Origin: Escherichia coli O157:H7
GTDB lineage: Bacteria > Pseudomonadota > Gammaproteobacteria > Enterobacterales > Enterobacteriaceae
DNA: 64,000 bases
Direction: 5' to 3' (one strand)
NCBI RefSeq assembly: GCF_013167455.1
Contig: NZ_CP038328.1
How positions within the stretch are numbered: the first letter of the stretch is position 1; every line of letters begins with the position of its first letter. The translations under genes were made by a program, and so were the position numbers. Below the pieces are notes generated by a model. The model ran no database searches, had not been told where the DNA came from, and saw nothing but the letters and a program-made list of their open reading frames with translations. Positions 54,408 through 61,869 of this stretch are shown here, piece by piece.

Positions 54408-55652
54408 TTAATTACGCAGGGCGCTATTTGCCAGACGATCGTCTTCCGCCTGGCAAGCTGCCGCAGTGAACAGCACGTCAGTTGAAGAGTTCAGAGCGGT
54501 TTCGCAAGAGTCCTGCAATACGCCGATAATAAAGCCGACGGCAACCACCTGCATGGCGATATCGTTCGAAATACCGAACATATTACAGGCCAGTGGGATC
54601 AGCAGCAAAGAACCCCCCGCCACGCCGGATGCGCCACAGGCACACAGAGAAGCCACTACGCTCAACAGCAGCGCTGTGGGCAGATCGACCGGAATACCCA
54701 GCGTATTAACCGCAGCCAGCGTCAACACGGTAATGGTGATTGCTGCGCCCGCCATATTGATGGTGGCTCCCAGCGGAATAGAAACGGAATAGGTATCGCG
54801 ATCCAGATTCAGCTTTTCACACAGTGCCATATTCACCGGAATGTTCGCCGCAGAGCTGCGGGTGAAGAAGGCATACACGCCGCTTTCGCGCAGGCACAGC
54901 AGCACCAGCGGGAACGGGTTACGACGAATTTTCCACCACACCAGCAATGGGTTAACCACCAGCGCCACCAGTAACATACAGCCAACCAGCACGACCAGCA
55001 GTTGCGCGTAGCCCCACAGTGTGGAGAAACCGGTGGTTGCCAGGGTAGAAGAAACCAGACCAAAAATACCAATCGGTGCGAAGCGAATGACCAGTTTCAC
55101 CATAAAGGTGACGGCATTCGACATATCGTTGACCAGGTTTTTGGTGGTCTCGTTACCGTGACGCAGTGCGAAACCGAGGCCAATTGCCCACACCAGGATC
55201 CCGATGTAGTTACCTTTCAGCAGCGCGTCGATGGGGTTGGAAACCATGCTCATTACCAGCCCGCGCATCACTTCTACAATGCCTGACGGTGGCGAAATAT
55301 CACCCGCGCTACTGGATAAGTGCAGGGTAGAAGGGAAGGCGAAGCTGAAAACGACTGCGGCCAGAGCAGCAGAGAAGGTACCCAGCAGATAGAGGAACAA
55401 AATAGGGCGGATATTGGTTTTCTGCCCGTGCTGGTGGTTAGCAATAGATGCCATCACCAGCATCAACACCAGGATGGGGGCAACGGCTTTCAGTGCGCCG
55501 ACGAACAAAGTACCTAACAGACCAACAGCTTCCGCCGCGGGTTTTGAGATCCATGCCAGAAGAATCCCCAGAACAAGGCCGACCAGGATTTGTTTTACCA
55601 GGCTGCCATGAGCCAGACGCCGGAATAGCCCCGGTGAACGTTGCGTAGTCAT
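54408..55652 (-). CDS. sstT: Na+-coupled serine/threonine transporter
   Basis: 414-aa polytopic ORF, DAACS family; convergent with ygjV with a 4-bp gap. Confidence 0.9.
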
Positions 55653-55878
55653 TTTTCGATCCTTTCATTGTGTTGTCGCACATCCCTGGTGCGTTCTGTC
55701 GACGCATCTTTCAGGATGTAACAAAGTGTTTGCAAGGTCGAGTATAAGGAAAGTTACAGCTTCGGGAAGCGAAAAATGCTGGATTTTAAAGAGAGGTCAT
55801 ATTTTGCAACTTAATGGTTACATTTATTTGACATAAAAATAAAGCCAACGTGCGGCTTCCAGACTGAGGACTACGTCA

Positions 55879-55900
55879 AAAAAGGACTCGGTCAGTCCCC
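55879..55900 (-). terminator. Candidate intrinsic terminator at the end of the alx 3' UTR
   Basis: Minus strand: gggactg-accga-gtcc followed by tttttt. Confidence 0.5.
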
Positions 55901-56000
55901 TCGCCCCGTTTGGGGAGAGGGTTAGGGTGAGGGGAACAGGCCAGCATCGGTGCGAAAAATTACCCTCACCCCGACCCTCTCCCTGGAAGGGAGAGGGAGA
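55895..56000. repeat. GC-rich compound palindromic element (GGGAGAGGG / CCCTCTCCC and GGGTGAGGG / CCCTCACCC arms) in the alx 3' region
   Basis: gggagagggttagggtgagggg ... ccctcaccccgaccctctccc form about 19-bp inverted arms separated by about 30 nt; a further gggagagggag copy follows. Confidence 0.6.
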
Positions 56001-56050
56001 AAACGGTGCTCATGTTGATGACAGGGTACACGGCTTAGGCAGATTAAAAA

Positions 56051-57016
56051 TCATCCAACCCGCTGCTTATCATGCCGATAATTCACCCAGGCGTTGATAA
56101 TAAACGTCATCACCAGGATGCCAAACACCACGCCCAGCGAGACGGCGATTGGAATATGGTAGAAGTCGACAATCAGCATCTTGATACCGATAAACACCAG
56201 AATCACCGCCAGGCCATATTTGAGCATCGAGAAACGCTCTGCTACGCCCGCCAGCAGGAAATACATCGCACGCAGGCCGAGGATCGCAAACAGGTTTGAG
56301 GTCAGCACAATGAACGGGTCAGTGGTCACGGCGAAGATAGCCGGAATGCTATCCACGGCAAAAATCACGTCGCTCAATTCCACCAGAATCAGTACCAGCA
56401 TCAGCGGTGTGGCGTACAGCAATCCATTCTTACGCACAAAGAAATGCTCGTTGTCGATGGTGTCGGTCATGCGCAAATGACCGCGTAGCCAGCGCACCAG
56501 CGGCTTGTCGCCAATGCCTGATTCATCTTCATGGGCGAGCGCCATCTTCACGCCGGTAAACAGCAGGAAGGCACCGAAGATATACAGGATCCAGTCGAAC
56601 TGCGAAATCAGCCAGCTGCCAGTGAAGATCATGATGGTACGCAGAACAATCGCCCCGAGCACGCCATACACCAGCACGCGGCGTTGTAATGCCGCCGGAA
56701 CGGAGAAATAGCTGAACAACATCAGCCAGACAAAGACGTTATCGACCGCCAGCGACTTCTCAATCAGATAACCCGTGAGGAAGGCCAGCGCCTGTGGATC
56801 GGCAACGGCGCGACCTTCGGTTTGTACCAGATACCACCAGAAAGCAGCGTTAAACAGTAACGACAGCGTCACCCAGACCAGCGACCAGGCCGCAGCCTGT
56901 TTCATGGTCATGGCATGTGCCCCACGACGTCCCTGCAACAACAGGTCGATAGCCAGCATAATGGCGACAACAACAGCGAATCCGCCCCATAGCAACGGCG
57001 TGCCGACAGTATTCAT
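56051..57016 (-). CDS. alx: TerC-family inner-membrane protein Alx (putative Mn2+ exporter, alkaline-induced)
   Basis: 321-aa [39 protein letters not shown]... Confidence 0.9.
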
Positions 57017-57029
57017 AGAAGTTCCTTAC

Positions 57030-57265
57030 ACATAAAAAAAACGGCCAACGTCGGAAGACGTCAGCCGCTGCTTTTTATGCATAGACCTCGCCTTCCGGCA
57101 AGGTCTCACTTACAACAAAAAAGGAATACGTCTGCGTATTCCTTTCGGGTTGCCCGGTGACCGGATGTGGTTTTTCACACATCGTAATGACGATCGACCG
57201 GCAATGAAGTTACTCCCCTTTGCAGGTAACAAAGTATGACAGACCATTCAGTCAGTCAATGGTCT
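57030..57265 (-). ncRNA. sraF: alx 5' leader: yybP-ykoY-type (Mn2+ / pH-responsive) riboswitch element (SraF) with attenuator hairpins
   Basis: Minus strand contains aaaggggagtaacttcattgccggtcgatcgtcattacg, then hairpin aggaatacgcagacgtattcc + U6, then a second hairpin gacgtcttccgacgt + U8 about 20 nt before the alx ATG. Confidence 0.6.
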
Positions 57266-57299
57266 GTTACATACCTTTTACACTGTTTTACTTTGGCAA

Positions 57300-58286
57300 T
57301 TATAGTTTTACGCTATCTGCCGGAAAAATCACCCCAGTCTGGCGGCGGATCTCGGTCAGCAGTTTGGCTGTGATGCGACTGACCGCCAGCCCTGGATGAT
57401 CCACCAGATGCTCATCCACCAGGGTAGCGAACAGCTCTGCTTCGTAGAGCATGGTATTAATATGCTGCGGCTGGGTGAGATCCTGCATCTGGCTGCCACG
57501 CGGCACGAAGCACACTTTCTGGCATTCAGACAGTTTTTCAATCACCAGCGATCCCGCTTCGCCCTGAATCTCGCTTGCCAGGACAGAATCGCTGACCTTT
57601 GAGTGCTGCAAGGTGACGCTGAAATCACCGTAATCCATCACCACCACGCCGTGGGCATCTACACCACTTGCCAGTAAACTGGCGGTTGCCTGCACGCTTT
57701 TCGGCTCACCAAATAACGCTACCGCCGACGCCAGGCAGTAAAAGCCGATATCCATAATTGAACCGTTAGAGAATGCCGGATTAAAGGTGTTGGGATTCTC
57801 ACCGTCCAGGTAACGTTGATACCGCGAGGAATACTGGCAATAGTTGAAAAAAACTTTCCGCAGTTTGCCGACTTTCGGCAGCGCCTGGCGTAACAGATGA
57901 AAGTTAGGCAGGCTGGCCGTTTTAAATGCCTCAAACAGCACCACCTGATTTTCACGCGCGCAGGCAATGGCTGCATCCACTTCCGCCAGATTCGACGCCA
58001 GTGGTTTCTCACAAATCACATGAATTTTGTGGCTCAGGAAAAGTTGCGTCTGGGAAAAATGCAGGGCGTTCGGGCTGGCAATATACACCGCGTCGATAGC
58101 GTCACTTTCCGCCATTGCTTCCAGCGAAGTAAACAGATGCTCGACAGAAAACTCATTGGCGAAGTGCTGGGCCTGTTCAAGGCTGCGGGAATAAACGGCG
58201 GTTAACTTATATTTACCGCTTTCATGTGCGGCCTCCACGAACTGGTGAGTTATCCAGTTCGTACCAATCACGGCGAAACGTATCAT
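57300..58286 (-). CDS. ygjR: Gfo/Idh/MocA-family NAD(P)-dependent oxidoreductase
   Basis: MIRFAVIGTNWITHQFVEAAHESGKYKLTAVYSRSLEQAQHFANEF... (328 aa). Confidence 0.85.
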   Translation of the reverse strand: MIRFAVIGTNWITHQFVEAAHESGKYKLTAVYSRSLEQAQHFANEFSVEHLFTSLEAMAESDAIDAVYIASPNALHFSQTQLFLSHKIHVICEKPLASNLAEVDAAIACARENQVVLFEAFKTASLPNFHLLRQALPKVGKLRKVFFNYCQYSSRYQRYLDGENPNTFNPAFSNGSIMDIGFYCLASAVALFGEPKSVQATASLLASGVDAHGVVVMDYGDFSVTLQHSKVSDSVLASEIQGEAGSLVIEKLSECQKVCFVPRGSQMQDLTQPQHINTMLYEAELFATLVDEHLVDHPGLAVSRITAKLLTEIRRQTGVIFPADSVKL

Positions 58287-58364
58287 AACGCGTGGATACT
58301 CCATAAAGGGATTCTGTCGTCAATGTAGCACGCCTTTTTCATCTTCGACGTGCGCGGATACGCA

Positions 58365-59057
58365 TTATTTCTGCGCCGGACAACCATGCTCACTAAACGG
58401 ACCAATAATGACCGACGGCCCGAGATATTTTGGCTGACGATTGAAGATTTTCGCGTCAATCACCGCGCTGACTCTGGCGAGTTTCTCTCGCAGACGGACA
58501 ATCTTTCCGCGTCCTTTTTCCAGGTCTGGTGCGTTAAACCCGATAGCATCGATGCCGTATTGTTTTGCCAGCCAGATGGCGCGTTGGTTATGAAATTCCT
58601 GCGAGATAATGGTGATATGGTTCTCCCCAAACACTTTATTGGCACGCACCACTGAATCAAGCGTTGAGAATCCGGCATAGTCACAGAAGATCACTTTTGC
58701 CGGTACGCCCTTTGCGATCAAAGCCTGCTGCATGCCTGACGCTTCATCGTAATTTTTACGTCCGTTATCGCCACTGACCAGCAGCCATTTCACTTTTCCG
58801 GCGTGGTACAACTCTGCTGCGGTATCAATACGTCGGGTAAAGTAGCGATTACCCGGCCTGGCCCCCAGCAATAAGCCCACGTTACGCGCCGGAACGACGT
58901 TGACGTCGCTCCAGGTCAGCTGTTTGCTGGCGTTGACCATTACGCGATCGGCGATAAAAATGGTCGCTCCTGCCACAAGTAACAGTAAGCAGGCAATCTT
59001 TAGAGTCCGGCGAGAAAAACAAATACGGAGAAGAAGGCGGGCAAATGCGCGCAGCAT
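58365..59057 (-). CDS. ygjQ: DUF218 (SanA/YdcF-like) domain protein with N-terminal membrane anchor
   Basis: 230-aa [42 protein letters not shown]... Confidence 0.8.
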
Positions 59058-59133
59058 GGTCGTTATCCTTAACGAAAGGGGGGAGGTCGATTTTAGGCGC
59101 TAAAGAAAGAAAAGATAACGCCTGACATCATTT

Positions 59134-59637
59134 TCAGATTTTGTCCTGCCCAAGCGACAACTGGGTTAGCCACAGTCGGGTGTCGAACTCAAGCTGGTGG
59201 TACTGGGGTTCCATATGACAGCACAACTGGTAAAACGCTTTGTTATGCTCTTTCTCCTTCAGGTGCGCCAGCTCGTGCACCACGATCATGCGCAAAAACG
59301 GTTCCGGCGCGTTGCGAAACACGGTAGCGACGCGGATCTCTGCTTTTGCTTTCAGCTTGCCGCCCTGCACACGAGAAACAGCGGTATGTAACCCGAGCGC
59401 GTTTTTTAGCACATGGATCTTATTGTCATACATCACTTTATTGATCGGCGGGGCATTACGCAGAAACTGATTTTTCAGATCCTGAGTATATTGCCAGAGG
59501 GCTTTATCGGTGGCGTAGTCGTGTGTTCCCGGATAGCGTTTTGCCAGCACATCGCCCAGACGCTGTTCGTTAATCAGTGTTCGCACCTGGGAAAGTAGCT
59601 GCTCGGGATAACCCTGAAGATAAGTAAGATTGCTCAT
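59134..59637 (-). CDS. ygjP: Predicted zinc-dependent hydrolase (DUF45, HExxH motif)
   Basis: [17 protein letters not shown]... (167 aa) containing [13 protein letters not shown]. Confidence 0.8.
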
Positions 59638-59721
59638 AACCGCCCACGAAAAAGAGAAAAAGGGTATACTCACGCACCCTTTTCAGGGGCAATGTCGAAA
59701 TTTTATCATTCAGGAGGGCCG

Positions 59722-60858
59722 ATGAGCCACTTAGACAACGGTTTCCGTTCACTGACACTACAACGTTTTCCGGCGACGGATGACGTTAACCCGCTACAGG
59801 CGTGGGAAGCGGCGGATGAATATTTGCTGCAACAGTTGGACGACACAGAAATCCGCGGCCCGGTGTTGATCCTGAATGATGCCTTTGGTGCGTTAAGCTG
59901 CGCGCTGGCGGAACATAAGCCGTACAGCATTGGCGACTCATACATCAGTGAACTGGCGACGCGCGAGAATTTACGCCTCAACGGGATTGATGAGTCGAGC
60001 GTGAAGTTTCTCGACAGCACCGCCGACTACCCGCAACAGCCGGGTGTGGTGCTGATCAAAGTGCCGAAAACACTGGCATTGCTGGAACAGCAACTGCGTG
60101 CGCTGCGCAAAGTGGTCACGCCACAAACACGTATTATTGCCGGTGCCAAAGCCCGTGACATCCACACTTCCACGCTGGAACTATTCGAAAAAGTGCTCGG
60201 CCCGACCACCACCACGCTGGCATGGAAGAAAGCGCGCCTGATTAACTGCACTTTCAATGAACCACCGCTGGCCGATGCGCCGCAGACCGTTAGCTGGAAG
60301 CTGGAAGGTACTGACTGGACTATCCACAACCATGCGAATGTCTTCTCCCGCACCGGGCTGGATATCGGCGCGCGCTTCTTTATGCAACATCTGCCAGAGA
60401 ATCTCGAAGGGGAGATTGTCGATCTCGGTTGCGGTAATGGCGTTATTGGTCTGACGCTGCTTGATAAAAACCCGCAGGCGAAAGTGGTGTTTGTCGATGA
60501 ATCGCCGATGGCGGTTGCTTCCAGCCGTTTGAACGTTGAAACCAACATGCCAGAGGCGTTGGATCGCTGCGAATTTATGATCAACAACGCGCTCTCCGGC
60601 GTGGAGCCTTTCCGCTTTAATGCTGTGCTCTGCAACCCGCCGTTTCATCAGCAACATGCGCTGACCGATAACGTCGCCTGGGAGATGTTCCACCACGCCC
60701 GCCGCTGCCTGAAAATCAACGGCGAGCTGTATATCGTTGCCAACCGTCACCTGGATTACTTCCATAAACTGAAGAAAATTTTCGGCAACTGCACCACCAT
60801 CGCCACGAATAATAAATTTGTGGTGCTGAAAGCAGTGAAGCTGGGGCGTCGTCGGTAA
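59722..60858 (+). CDS. rlmG: 23S rRNA m2G1835 methyltransferase
   Basis: [38 protein letters not shown]... (378 aa) with SAM-binding motif [11 protein letters not shown] and NPPFH catalytic motif. Confidence 0.9.
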
Positions 60859-60869
60859 GATTGACAGCT

Positions 60870-60965
60870 ACCTGCCAGATAAGGCGTAAACGCCTTATCT
60901 GGCATACGTTTAGCACATTACCCCCAGGTCGGATAAGATGCGGCAAGCGTCGCATCCGGCAATGT
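60870..60965. repeat. REP/BIME palindromic units
   Basis: ctgccagataaggcgtaaacgccttatctggcat ... ggtcggataagatgcggcaagcgtcgcatccggca. Confidence 0.75.
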
Positions 60966-61076
60966 CTGCCCAGTTCTGGAATCGCGCTCCATAAAACAAA
61001 AAATCCCTGTCACCATCCTCTACATTCTCTTGTTTAGCGTTGTTTAACGTTTATTCTTCCGTCACACAGATAAATT

Positions 61077-61133
61077 CATCCGTTGCCAATCTGTCAACGG
61101 ATGTTATCATATTGCCAATTTGTCAACGGACGT
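61077..61133. promoter_or_regulatory. higBA promoter with palindromic operator (9-9-9) and a degenerate second copy
   Basis: CATCCGTTG-ccaatctgt-CAACGGATG (61077-61103) is a perfect inverted repeat; attgccaatttgtcaacggacg (61111-61132) repeats the right half immediately before the higB ATG. Confidence 0.5.
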
Positions 61134-61141
61134 GATGAAGA

Positions 61142-61456
61142 ATGCACCTGATAACTCAAAAAGCATTGAAAGATGCTGCGGAAAAATACCCGCAACATAA
61201 AACGGAGTTGGTGGCTCTAGGGAACACGATTGCTAAGGGATATTTCAAAAAACCTGAGTCATTAAAAGCAGTATTCCCATCTCTGGATAACTTCAAATAT
61301 CTGGATAAGCATTATGTTTTCAATGTTGGGGGCAATGAATTACGTGTTGTAGCAATGGTCTTTTTTGAATCGCAAAAGTGCTACATACGTGAAGTTATGA
61401 CGCATAAAGAATACGATTTTTTTACCGCTGTTCATCGTACTAAGGGGAAAAAATGA
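61142..61456 (+). CDS. higB: mRNA interferase toxin HigB (RelE/ParE superfamily)
   Basis: 104-aa ORF MHLITQKALKDAAEKYPQHKTELVALGNTIAKGYFKKPESLKAVF...; 4-bp overlap (ATGA) with higA. Confidence 0.85.
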   Translation: MHLITQKALKDAAEKYPQHKTELVALGNTIAKGYFKKPESLKAVFPSLDNFKYLDKHYVFNVGGNELRVVAMVFFESQKCYIREVMTHKEYDFFTAVHRTKGKK

Positions 61457-61869
61457 TTGCGATTGCCGACATCTTGCATGCAGGAGAAAAGCTAACTGCT
61501 GTGGCACCTTTTCTGGCGGGTATTCAGAACGAGGAACAATACATCCAGGCGCTGGAACTGGTAGATCATCTGCTGCTCAACGATCCTGAAAACCCCTTAC
61601 TGGATCTGGTGTGTGCCAAAATAACCGCGTGGGAAGAATCAGCGCCCGAATTTGCGGAATTTAATGCCATGGCTCAAGCCATGCCTGGCGGTATAGCCGT
61701 GATTCGTACCCTTATGGATCAATATGGTTTAACCCTTTCCGATCTGCCGGAAATTGGCAGTAAATCTATGGTGTCACGCGTTTTGAGCGGGAAGAGGAAA
61801 TTAACGCTGGAACACGCTAAAAAATTGGCAACGCGATTCGGCATTTCTCCCGCCTTGTTTATTGATTAA
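61453..61869 (+). CDS. higA: Antitoxin HigA (HTH-XRE)
   Basis: 138-aa ORF with C-terminal HTH (SMVSRVLSGKRKLTLEHAKKLATRFGISPALFID). Confidence 0.85.
   Translation: MIAIADILHAGEKLTAVAPFLAGIQNEEQYIQALELVDHLLLNDPENPLLDLVCAKITAWEESAPEFAEFNAMAQAMPGGIAVIRTLMDQYGLTLSDLPEIGSKSMVSRVLSGKRKLTLEHAKKLATRFGISPALFID

Follow-up and report, generated by a model that had tools for sequence, protein, structure and literature searches.

YgjP of Escherichia coli O157:H7, namesake of the DUF45 family, as a predicted minimal zincin with a candidate uridine-nucleotide substrate

YgjP, a protein with an HExxH core, is the namesake of the YgjP-like family (PF01863, formerly DUF45; COG1451; KEGG K07043), and K07043 genes have been found alongside type I restriction-modification (R-M) genes in one pangenome study (PMC10561277). 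The HExxHx5H three-histidine signature belongs to the WLM and SprT-like families, which include the DNA-protein-crosslink (DPC) proteases Wss1 and Spartan; in the crystal structure of Wss1, zinc is bound by His115, His119 and His125, and Glu116 polarises the catalytic water (PMC5557861). The minigluzincins proabylysin (4jiu), projannalysin (4jix) and selecase (4qhf) are archaeal proteins of only ~105-110 aa, and proabylysin is self-inhibited by its own C-terminal tail (PMC5557861). HtpX, Ste24 and BepA are M48 peptidases. Among nucleotide-directed enzymes, Maf is a dTTP/UTP pyrophosphatase that acts on modified nucleotides (PMC12682051).

We compared these systems with ygjP as it occurs in a stretch of 64,000 nucleotides from E. 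coli O157:H7, which we refer to in its entirety as the window. Relative to the wider DUF45 family, YgjP falls in a small clade of ~165-aa proteins with an N-terminal helical extension of their own, and ygjP lacks the R-M gene context known for K07043 elsewhere. Unlike Wss1 and Spartan, YgjP carries no DNA-binding, SIM, ubiquitin-binding or Cdc48-binding modules. The minigluzincins lack its N-terminal extension and share only 16-21% sequence identity with it; whereas the tail of proabylysin is self-inhibitory, that of the YgjP model is short and disordered. In contrast to the M48 peptidases, YgjP has no membrane or periplasmic targeting. The reaction reported for YgjP (NTP to NMP and PPi, with a preference for uridine) is that of Maf; the fold and catalytic machinery of Maf/YhdE, MazG and Nudix proteins are unrelated to those of YgjP. 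The gene is a known E. coli core gene, and the gene, its motif and its family have already been catalogued; the idea of a metal-dependent hydrolase and an in vitro activity are likewise present in public resources.

The ygjP gene and its putative metal site

The gene and the parts of its product that are discussed below are as follows.

59134..59637, minus strand: ygjP coding sequence, 167 aa plus stop, ATG start and TGA stop, predicted YgjP-like/DUF45 zinc hydrolase (translation, RefSeq, PF01863)
59509..59637, minus strand: N-terminal helical extension, residues 1-43, clade-specific, with conserved Y10, Y35 and H39; outside the PF01863 match
59155..59508, minus strand: predicted minimal zincin catalytic core, residues ~44-161
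59245..59277, minus strand: codons H121-H131, putative HExxHx5H metal site (family conservation and alignment to Wss1 and proabylysin)

The original prediction of an HExxH motif in a 167-aa protein was confirmed by translation and by RefSeq, where an identical O157:H7 genome has ygjP annotated with the same start and end; O157:H7 chromosomes are identical to the window over 57000-61000. A 179-aa open reading frame that begins at a GTG codon at 59673 was considered as an alternative form of the gene and rejected, since the N-termini of orthologues align to the ATG and the -10 element of the mapped promoter lies downstream of the GTG. The protein has a mass of 19.5 kDa and a basic pI of 9.3. A hydropathy scan of the protein revealed no signal peptide, transmembrane region or other hydrophobic segment, and a Pfam search recovered no further domain; YgjP is a single-domain protein. 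Ten longer homologues analysed with Pfam contained the YgjP-like domain only, with no informative fusions; one longer homologue with a CBS fragment is a probable gene-call chimera.

Among complete E. coli genomes, 5419 of 5426 encode ygjP, and the gene is full length in 5409 (that is, a full-length copy is missing in only ~10 of the 5419). Strong purifying selection is evident from a dN/dS of ~0.05 against Citrobacter and Enterobacter and of 0.05-0.2 across orthologues. The clade to which YgjP belongs comprises 634 clusters at E<=1e-3 among 1.84 billion representatives and spans Gamma- and Betaproteobacteria and relatives of Geobacter. In the O157:H7 strains 86-24, NADC 5570, CDC#03-98, ECP19-798 and TW14588, the gene is split by IS1203/IS629 after codon 132, just past HExxHx5H, into two pseudogene fragments; one such locus is given here.

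L082:2335-4151 (E. coli CDC#03-98): IS-split ygjP, the insertion being equivalent to window position ~59244

This insertion amounts to a natural ygjP knockout in a virulent O157:H7 lineage, and the function of the gene is therefore dispensable at least in the 86-24 lineage.

The motif occupies residues 119-131 and is encoded at 59283..59245 on the minus strand. In an alignment of 25 full-length homologues with identities down to 38%, H121, E122 and H125 are invariant, with at least 90% conservation at H131; conservation similar to that of H131 was found for Y10, Y35, H39, K55, C139, Y146, E150 and R154. Taken alone, HExxH is a weak signal, because 1.8% of shuffles of the His-rich YgjP sequence carry it; HExxHx5H appeared in 0.07% of shuffles. 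The motif is more than a product of chance, and its conservation weighs more in this respect than the shuffle rate. The 11-residue site aligns column for column with HELTHNLFGPH of Wss1 and HELAHLKAETSYH of proabylysin, such that H121, E122, H125 and H131 reproduce the three-histidine signature of the WLM and SprT-like families. The same correspondence extends over the 16-residue signature in the family profile, which aligns column for column with three solved proteins: Saccharomyces cerevisiae Wss1 (HELTHNLFGPHDKKFY), Schizosaccharomyces pombe Wss1 (HELTHNVHGEHDSSFW) and proabylysin (HELAHLKAETSYHSSSFW). By analogy with these proteins, H121, H125 and H131 are the probable zinc ligands of YgjP and E122 its probable general base. 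The third ligand would thus be a histidine at position +6, whereas in gluzincins the third ligand is a distal glutamate.

Predicted fold and family placement

An AlphaFold2 model of YgjP built on the family alignment was confident (pLDDT 89.7, pTM 0.85). Its core consists of a backing helix (residues 44-58), a three-stranded sheet (65-104), the active-site helix (112-124) and two further helices (133-142 and 146-163). This corresponds to the zincin/minigluzincin layout, in which a mixed sheet and a backing helix accompany an HExxH active-site helix and the third ligand follows directly after. Two helices of the N-terminal extension (12-23 and 27-34) were predicted with pLDDT >90; residues 1-43 lie outside both the Pfam match and the ~100-residue minigluzincin core, and they may cap the active site or close the cleft.

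Structural comparison of the model returned proabylysin as the top match, with a score of 10.5 (97 residues, 1.9 Å), followed by Spartan (10.2), selecase (10.1) and projannalysin (10.0); Wss1 (8.9 and 8.3), YbeY-type metallo-RNases (8.5 and 7.5) and BepA (8.1) ranked below these. Foldseek matches were weaker, and the top matches were unchanged. The model thereby identifies YgjP as a minimal zincin, and the original view of a zincin-like HExxH protein is borne out by sequence, family conservation and predicted fold alike; structure prediction and fold search, which might have yielded a fold unrelated to metallohydrolases, instead matched minimal zincins.

Assignment to a profile family is less clear-cut. 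YgjP matches PF01863 with 43.5 bits against a gathering threshold of 26 (E 4.7e-11), and this domain was present in all 120 close homologues among the matches listed. The match is partial, covering only residues 93-149 and profile positions 144-200 of 207, and other short-clade members show the same partial match; as only the C-terminal quarter of the profile is matched, YgjP is best described as a divergent short member of the family. Matches to WLM (PF08325; 23.0 against 26 bits, E 9.7e-5) and to SprT-like (PF10263; 17.8 against 25.6 bits, E 0.003, residues 54-139) were sub-threshold. Databases variously name the family metal-dependent hydrolase, M48 family metallopeptidase and UTP pyrophosphatase. 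PGAP labels YgjP itself 'M48 family metallopeptidase'; no Peptidase_M48 match was found in YgjP with Pfam at E<=0.01, and the 'M48' label is a superfamily-level name rather than true membership. Nor did Pfam match YgjP to the NTP-pyrophosphatase families Maf, MazG, Nudix or dUTPase/ITPase. Judging from its sequence, YgjP would work like a three-histidine zincin of the Wss1/minigluzincin type, yet it does not qualify as a WLM, SprT-like or M48 protein.

Promoter region and neighbouring genes

The genes and promoter elements around ygjP in the window are listed below.

56051..57016, minus strand: alx, TerC (Pfam)
57300..58286, minus strand: ygjR, Gfo/Idh/MocA oxidoreductase, 328 aa (Pfam, RefSeq start)
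58365..59057, minus strand: ygjQ, DUF218 protein and SanA paralogue with an N-terminal transmembrane anchor (Pfam, NCBIfam, hydropathy)
59663..59692, minus strand: ygjP sigma-70 promoter TTGCCC-18-TATACC, back to back with the rlmG promoter (sequence and published hexamers)
59680-59709, plus strand: rlmG promoter-like site
59722..60858, plus strand: rlmG, divergent from ygjP

According to genomic SELEX, the rlmG-ygjP spacer holds constitutive RpoD (sigma-70) promoters of both genes, that of ygjP having the hexamers given above, and ygjP is listed as its own transcription unit (PMC3946193); in Reg-Seq, ygjP has a single RNAP site and no regulator (PMC7567609). From the positions of the hexamers, the ygjP leader is ~20 nt long. 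The 84-bp spacer also contains an inverted repeat with a 10-bp stem at 59657-59684 (AAAAGGGT ... ACCCTTTTT), which spans the spacer and -10 element of the ygjP promoter and abuts the -35 element of rlmG. A terminator scan flagged the corresponding hairpin (59684..59657), which also resembled a leader attenuator; we rejected these roles because the hairpin overlaps the promoter spacer and -10, a position better suited to an operator or a structural element of the back-to-back promoters. No Rfam family was detected in 55500-61500 at gathering thresholds. Farther along, the alx leader (57017-57299) contains two terminator-like hairpins with T-runs at 57146..57119 and 57069..57040 on the minus strand, and a permissive Rfam scan of this leader (E<=1) gave only a chance-level match. 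The alx leader has been described as an element that responds to pH and Mn and is related to yybP-ykoY, which makes the missing Rfam match noteworthy.

The neighbours are as the original prediction described them, with a membrane-anchored DUF218 protein (ygjQ), a Gfo/Idh/MocA oxidoreductase (ygjR) and alx all recognised by Pfam, NCBIfam or hydropathy. For ygjR, a mechanical reading frame begins at an ATG at 58304 (334 aa), while the RefSeq start at 58286 (328 aa, MIRFAVIG...) lies right at the N-terminus of the Rossmann fold. The proposal that ygjP, ygjQ and ygjR constitute a unit did not survive comparison across genomes. We sampled 80 homologue loci with one genome per species, 50 from Enterobacterales and 30 from outside the order (Vibrionaceae, Aeromonas, Pseudomonas, Burkholderiales, Neisseriaceae and Geobacter), and used tblastn to find the E. 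coli neighbours in them. Within Enterobacterales, rlmG was adjacent and divergent to ygjP in 42 of the 50 loci, and ygjR lay within 6 kb in 39 and was immediately adjacent in 29; several genera carry 2-4 kb inserted between ygjP and ygjR. ygjQ stood beside ygjP in only four loci (Escherichia, two Pseudocitrobacter and one Enterobacter). Outside the order, all 30 loci lacked every one of the E. coli neighbours of ygjP (0/30 each for rlmG, for ygjQ and for ygjR at either distance).

Outside Enterobacterales, no conserved partner of ygjP emerged, either from clustering of open reading frames in 56 loci or from Pfam analysis of 30 immediate neighbours. These 30 neighbours were heterogeneous, including Dak1, a permease, PEMT, DUF3010, an RF-1 domain protein, RlmF, PEP carboxylase and an RluA-like protein, with ABC-3, GST, a RIO kinase, exonuclease I and Hcp also found immediately beside ygjP homologues. 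As the synteny is confined to Enterobacterales and there is no conserved partner, the pattern is what common descent within one order predicts. Accordingly, ygjQ is a lineage-specific insertion. It shows no composition anomaly, with an unremarkable GC content; in the E. coli locus L002, ygjQ is more divergent (91% amino acid identity) than its flanks (98-100%). Between rlmG and fadH the region is variable, in that a higB-higA toxin-antitoxin pair at 61142-61869 occurs in the window and in two further species (L004 and L015), whereas in E. coli L002 and most Enterobacterales it is absent and rlmG abuts fadH.

Several RNA- or ribosome-related genes stand beside ygjP homologues. These are rlmG in Enterobacterales, a gene for an RlmF-type RNA methyltransferase in Vibrio penaeicida, an RluA-type pseudouridine synthase gene in Pelotalea, a gene for an RF-1-domain ArfB-like protein in Caldimonas and a RIO kinase gene in Geobacter.

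L058:6583-7587, L059:6667-7398, L052:6566-6979 and L074:5162-5989: RNA/ribosome-related genes beside ygjP homologues outside Enterobacterales

The part of this pattern that concerns RNA modification is thin, being seen in three lineages out of ~thirty contexts, and may be due to chance.

Candidate functions and substrate

The reading we favour is that YgjP is a mononuclear zinc hydrolase, soluble and cytoplasmic, whose gene has a constitutive promoter of its own and which acts on a small anionic substrate of the uridine-nucleotide type; taken as a whole, we regard this description as about equally likely to be right or wrong. Its components differ in strength: YgjP is very probably a stand-alone metallohydrolase, while the view that the physiological substrate is a nucleotide of this type rather than a peptide is tentative, and we hold it with slightly less than even confidence. 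It draws on the PF01863 match and conserved motif, the alignment to the Wss1 zinc site, the absence of export signals and of informative fusions, the database name of close homologues, the purifying selection and the constitutive promoter. The starting claim of an unknown substrate is partly outdated, in that close homologues are named 'UTP pyrophosphatase' at JGI. A slow conversion of UTP to UMP and PPi, with no activity on ATP, GTP, CTP, dTTP or ITP, is reported in UniProt P42597 and in Sevin et al. 2017 (Nat Methods), where this UTP-specific activity reportedly came to light through in vitro metabolomics screening.

In the mechanism we envisage, Zn2+ would be held by H121 and H125 of the active-site helix together with H131 six residues on, as homology with Wss1 and the minigluzincins suggests, and a zinc-bound water polarised by E122 would attack the scissile bond. 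The substrate site may be shaped by the N-terminal extension (Y10, Y35, H39) with the conserved K55, Y146, E150 and R154. The substrate could be UTP itself, hydrolysed to UMP and PPi, or more likely a damaged or modified UTP, in which case YgjP would be a slow 'house-cleaning' pyrophosphatase and not a protease. Both the substrate class and the role of the N-terminal extension are what we infer from these comparisons.

Two explanations place YgjP in a larger assembly. One, part of the original prediction, holds that ygjP, ygjQ and ygjR together form an envelope-maintenance module next to alx; the three genes do lie on the same strand, the gaps of 76 and 78 bp that separate them contain no convincing terminator, YgjQ is a SanA paralogue anchored in the membrane, and most Enterobacterales keep the order ygjP-ygjR-alx-sstT. 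However, this conservation is expected from descent alone, ygjQ rarely adjoins ygjP even within the order, several genera carry insertions between ygjP and ygjR and others have no ygjR within 6 kb, and the arrangement disappears altogether outside Enterobacterales. ygjP is catalogued as a single-gene unit with a promoter of its own, neither YgjP nor YgjR has an export signal, and YgjP would reside in the cytoplasm whereas YgjQ is anchored in the membrane. An envelope role for YgjQ alone, as a SanA paralogue, is plausible; synteny and annotation gave no evidence of a functional link between ygjQ and ygjP, and we consider the joint module very unlikely. The other explanation, that YgjP is an accessory of an R-M or other anti-phage system, a role that longer DUF45 proteins often have, draws on the pangenome association of K07043 and on PHROG 35874, which matches YgjP over its full length. 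We rejected the PHROG as a link to phages, since it is an artefact of its source collection: the only 'phage' records with ygjP (OR851303.1, OR845547.1 and AGRM01000002.1) are two unannotated records of ~2 kb and one 691-kb Salmonella scaffold, and because they are such fragments and a Salmonella scaffold they are apparently bacterial DNA filed as phage. PADLOC returned no match for YgjP, YgjQ or YgjR, and this is therefore not a defence locus; neither the window nor the 80 related loci have R-M or defence genes close to ygjP, the neighbours in the 30 diverse loci being unrelated housekeeping genes, and ygjP belongs to the core chromosome, where its position is fixed. For the short YgjP clade, a defence or R-M role, the least credible of the explanations weighed here, is effectively refuted.

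A more serious contender is that YgjP cleaves proteins in earnest, in the manner of Wss1, Spartan or selecase; as a peptidase it would act on a specific cytosolic protein or peptide that is possibly bound to nucleic acid, with UTP hydrolysis as a side activity. The close structural relatives that have been characterised (proabylysin, selecase, Spartan, Wss1 and BepA) are peptidases without exception, and because all of these cleave peptides the fold argues for a peptidase and against the nucleotide reading. The best structural matches are all metallopeptidases, the 16-residue signature matches Wss1 HELTHnlfgpHDkkFY, the sub-threshold WLM and SprT-like matches cover the catalytic core, the basic pI would suit nucleic-acid binding, and the PGAP label points in the same direction. 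Moreover, the UTPase activity is slow, reportedly comes from one high-throughput screen and could be promiscuous or due to a co-purified contaminant. The missing match to any known NTP-pyrophosphatase family and the natural disruption of ygjP by IS1203 in the 86-24 lineage also weigh against the favoured reading. Nevertheless, the zincin scaffold can act on phosphoesters, since YbeY, itself a structural match of YgjP, does so. YgjP consists of a single domain and has none of the accessory parts (DNA-binding, SUMO/ubiquitin-binding or Zn-ribbon) that Wss1 and Spartan carry, the thresholds of the WLM and SprT-like HMMs are not reached, and the sole activity recorded in databases acts on a nucleotide. 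Literature searches on ygjP, on DUF45/COG1451/PF01863/K07043 and on bacterial SprT/DPC yielded no functional study of YgjP; the gene is mentioned in a promoter catalogue, in Reg-Seq, as a translation reporter and as a polymorphism in an evolution experiment, the name ygjP is also applied to unrelated candidate transporters, and no proteolytic activity of YgjP is described in the literature that mentions ygjP. YgjP is not known to have a DNA-dependent activity either, and we know of no DUF45 protein for which proteolysis has been reported. On balance we judge the peptidase explanation rather unlikely and place it behind the favoured nucleotide reading.

A more specific proposal, which we regard as quite improbable, is that the YgjP clade either sanitises uridine nucleotides arising from the turnover of modified RNA (pseudo-UTP and methylated UTPs) or represents a bacterial counterpart of Wss1/Spartan; the sanitiser version would explain why homologues lie beside unrelated RNA-modification genes (rlmG, RlmF-type and RluA-type). 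If true, either role would be a new physiological role for the zincin/minigluzincin scaffold in bacteria. More broadly, ygjP is among the E. coli core genes that are still poorly understood, and it gives its name to the large DUF45/COG1451 family. An answer to whether YgjP acts on nucleotides or on peptides would correct the clashing labels 'M48 metallopeptidase', 'UTP pyrophosphatase' and 'DUF45', and would show whether a three-histidine site of the Wss1 type can serve phosphoanhydride chemistry.
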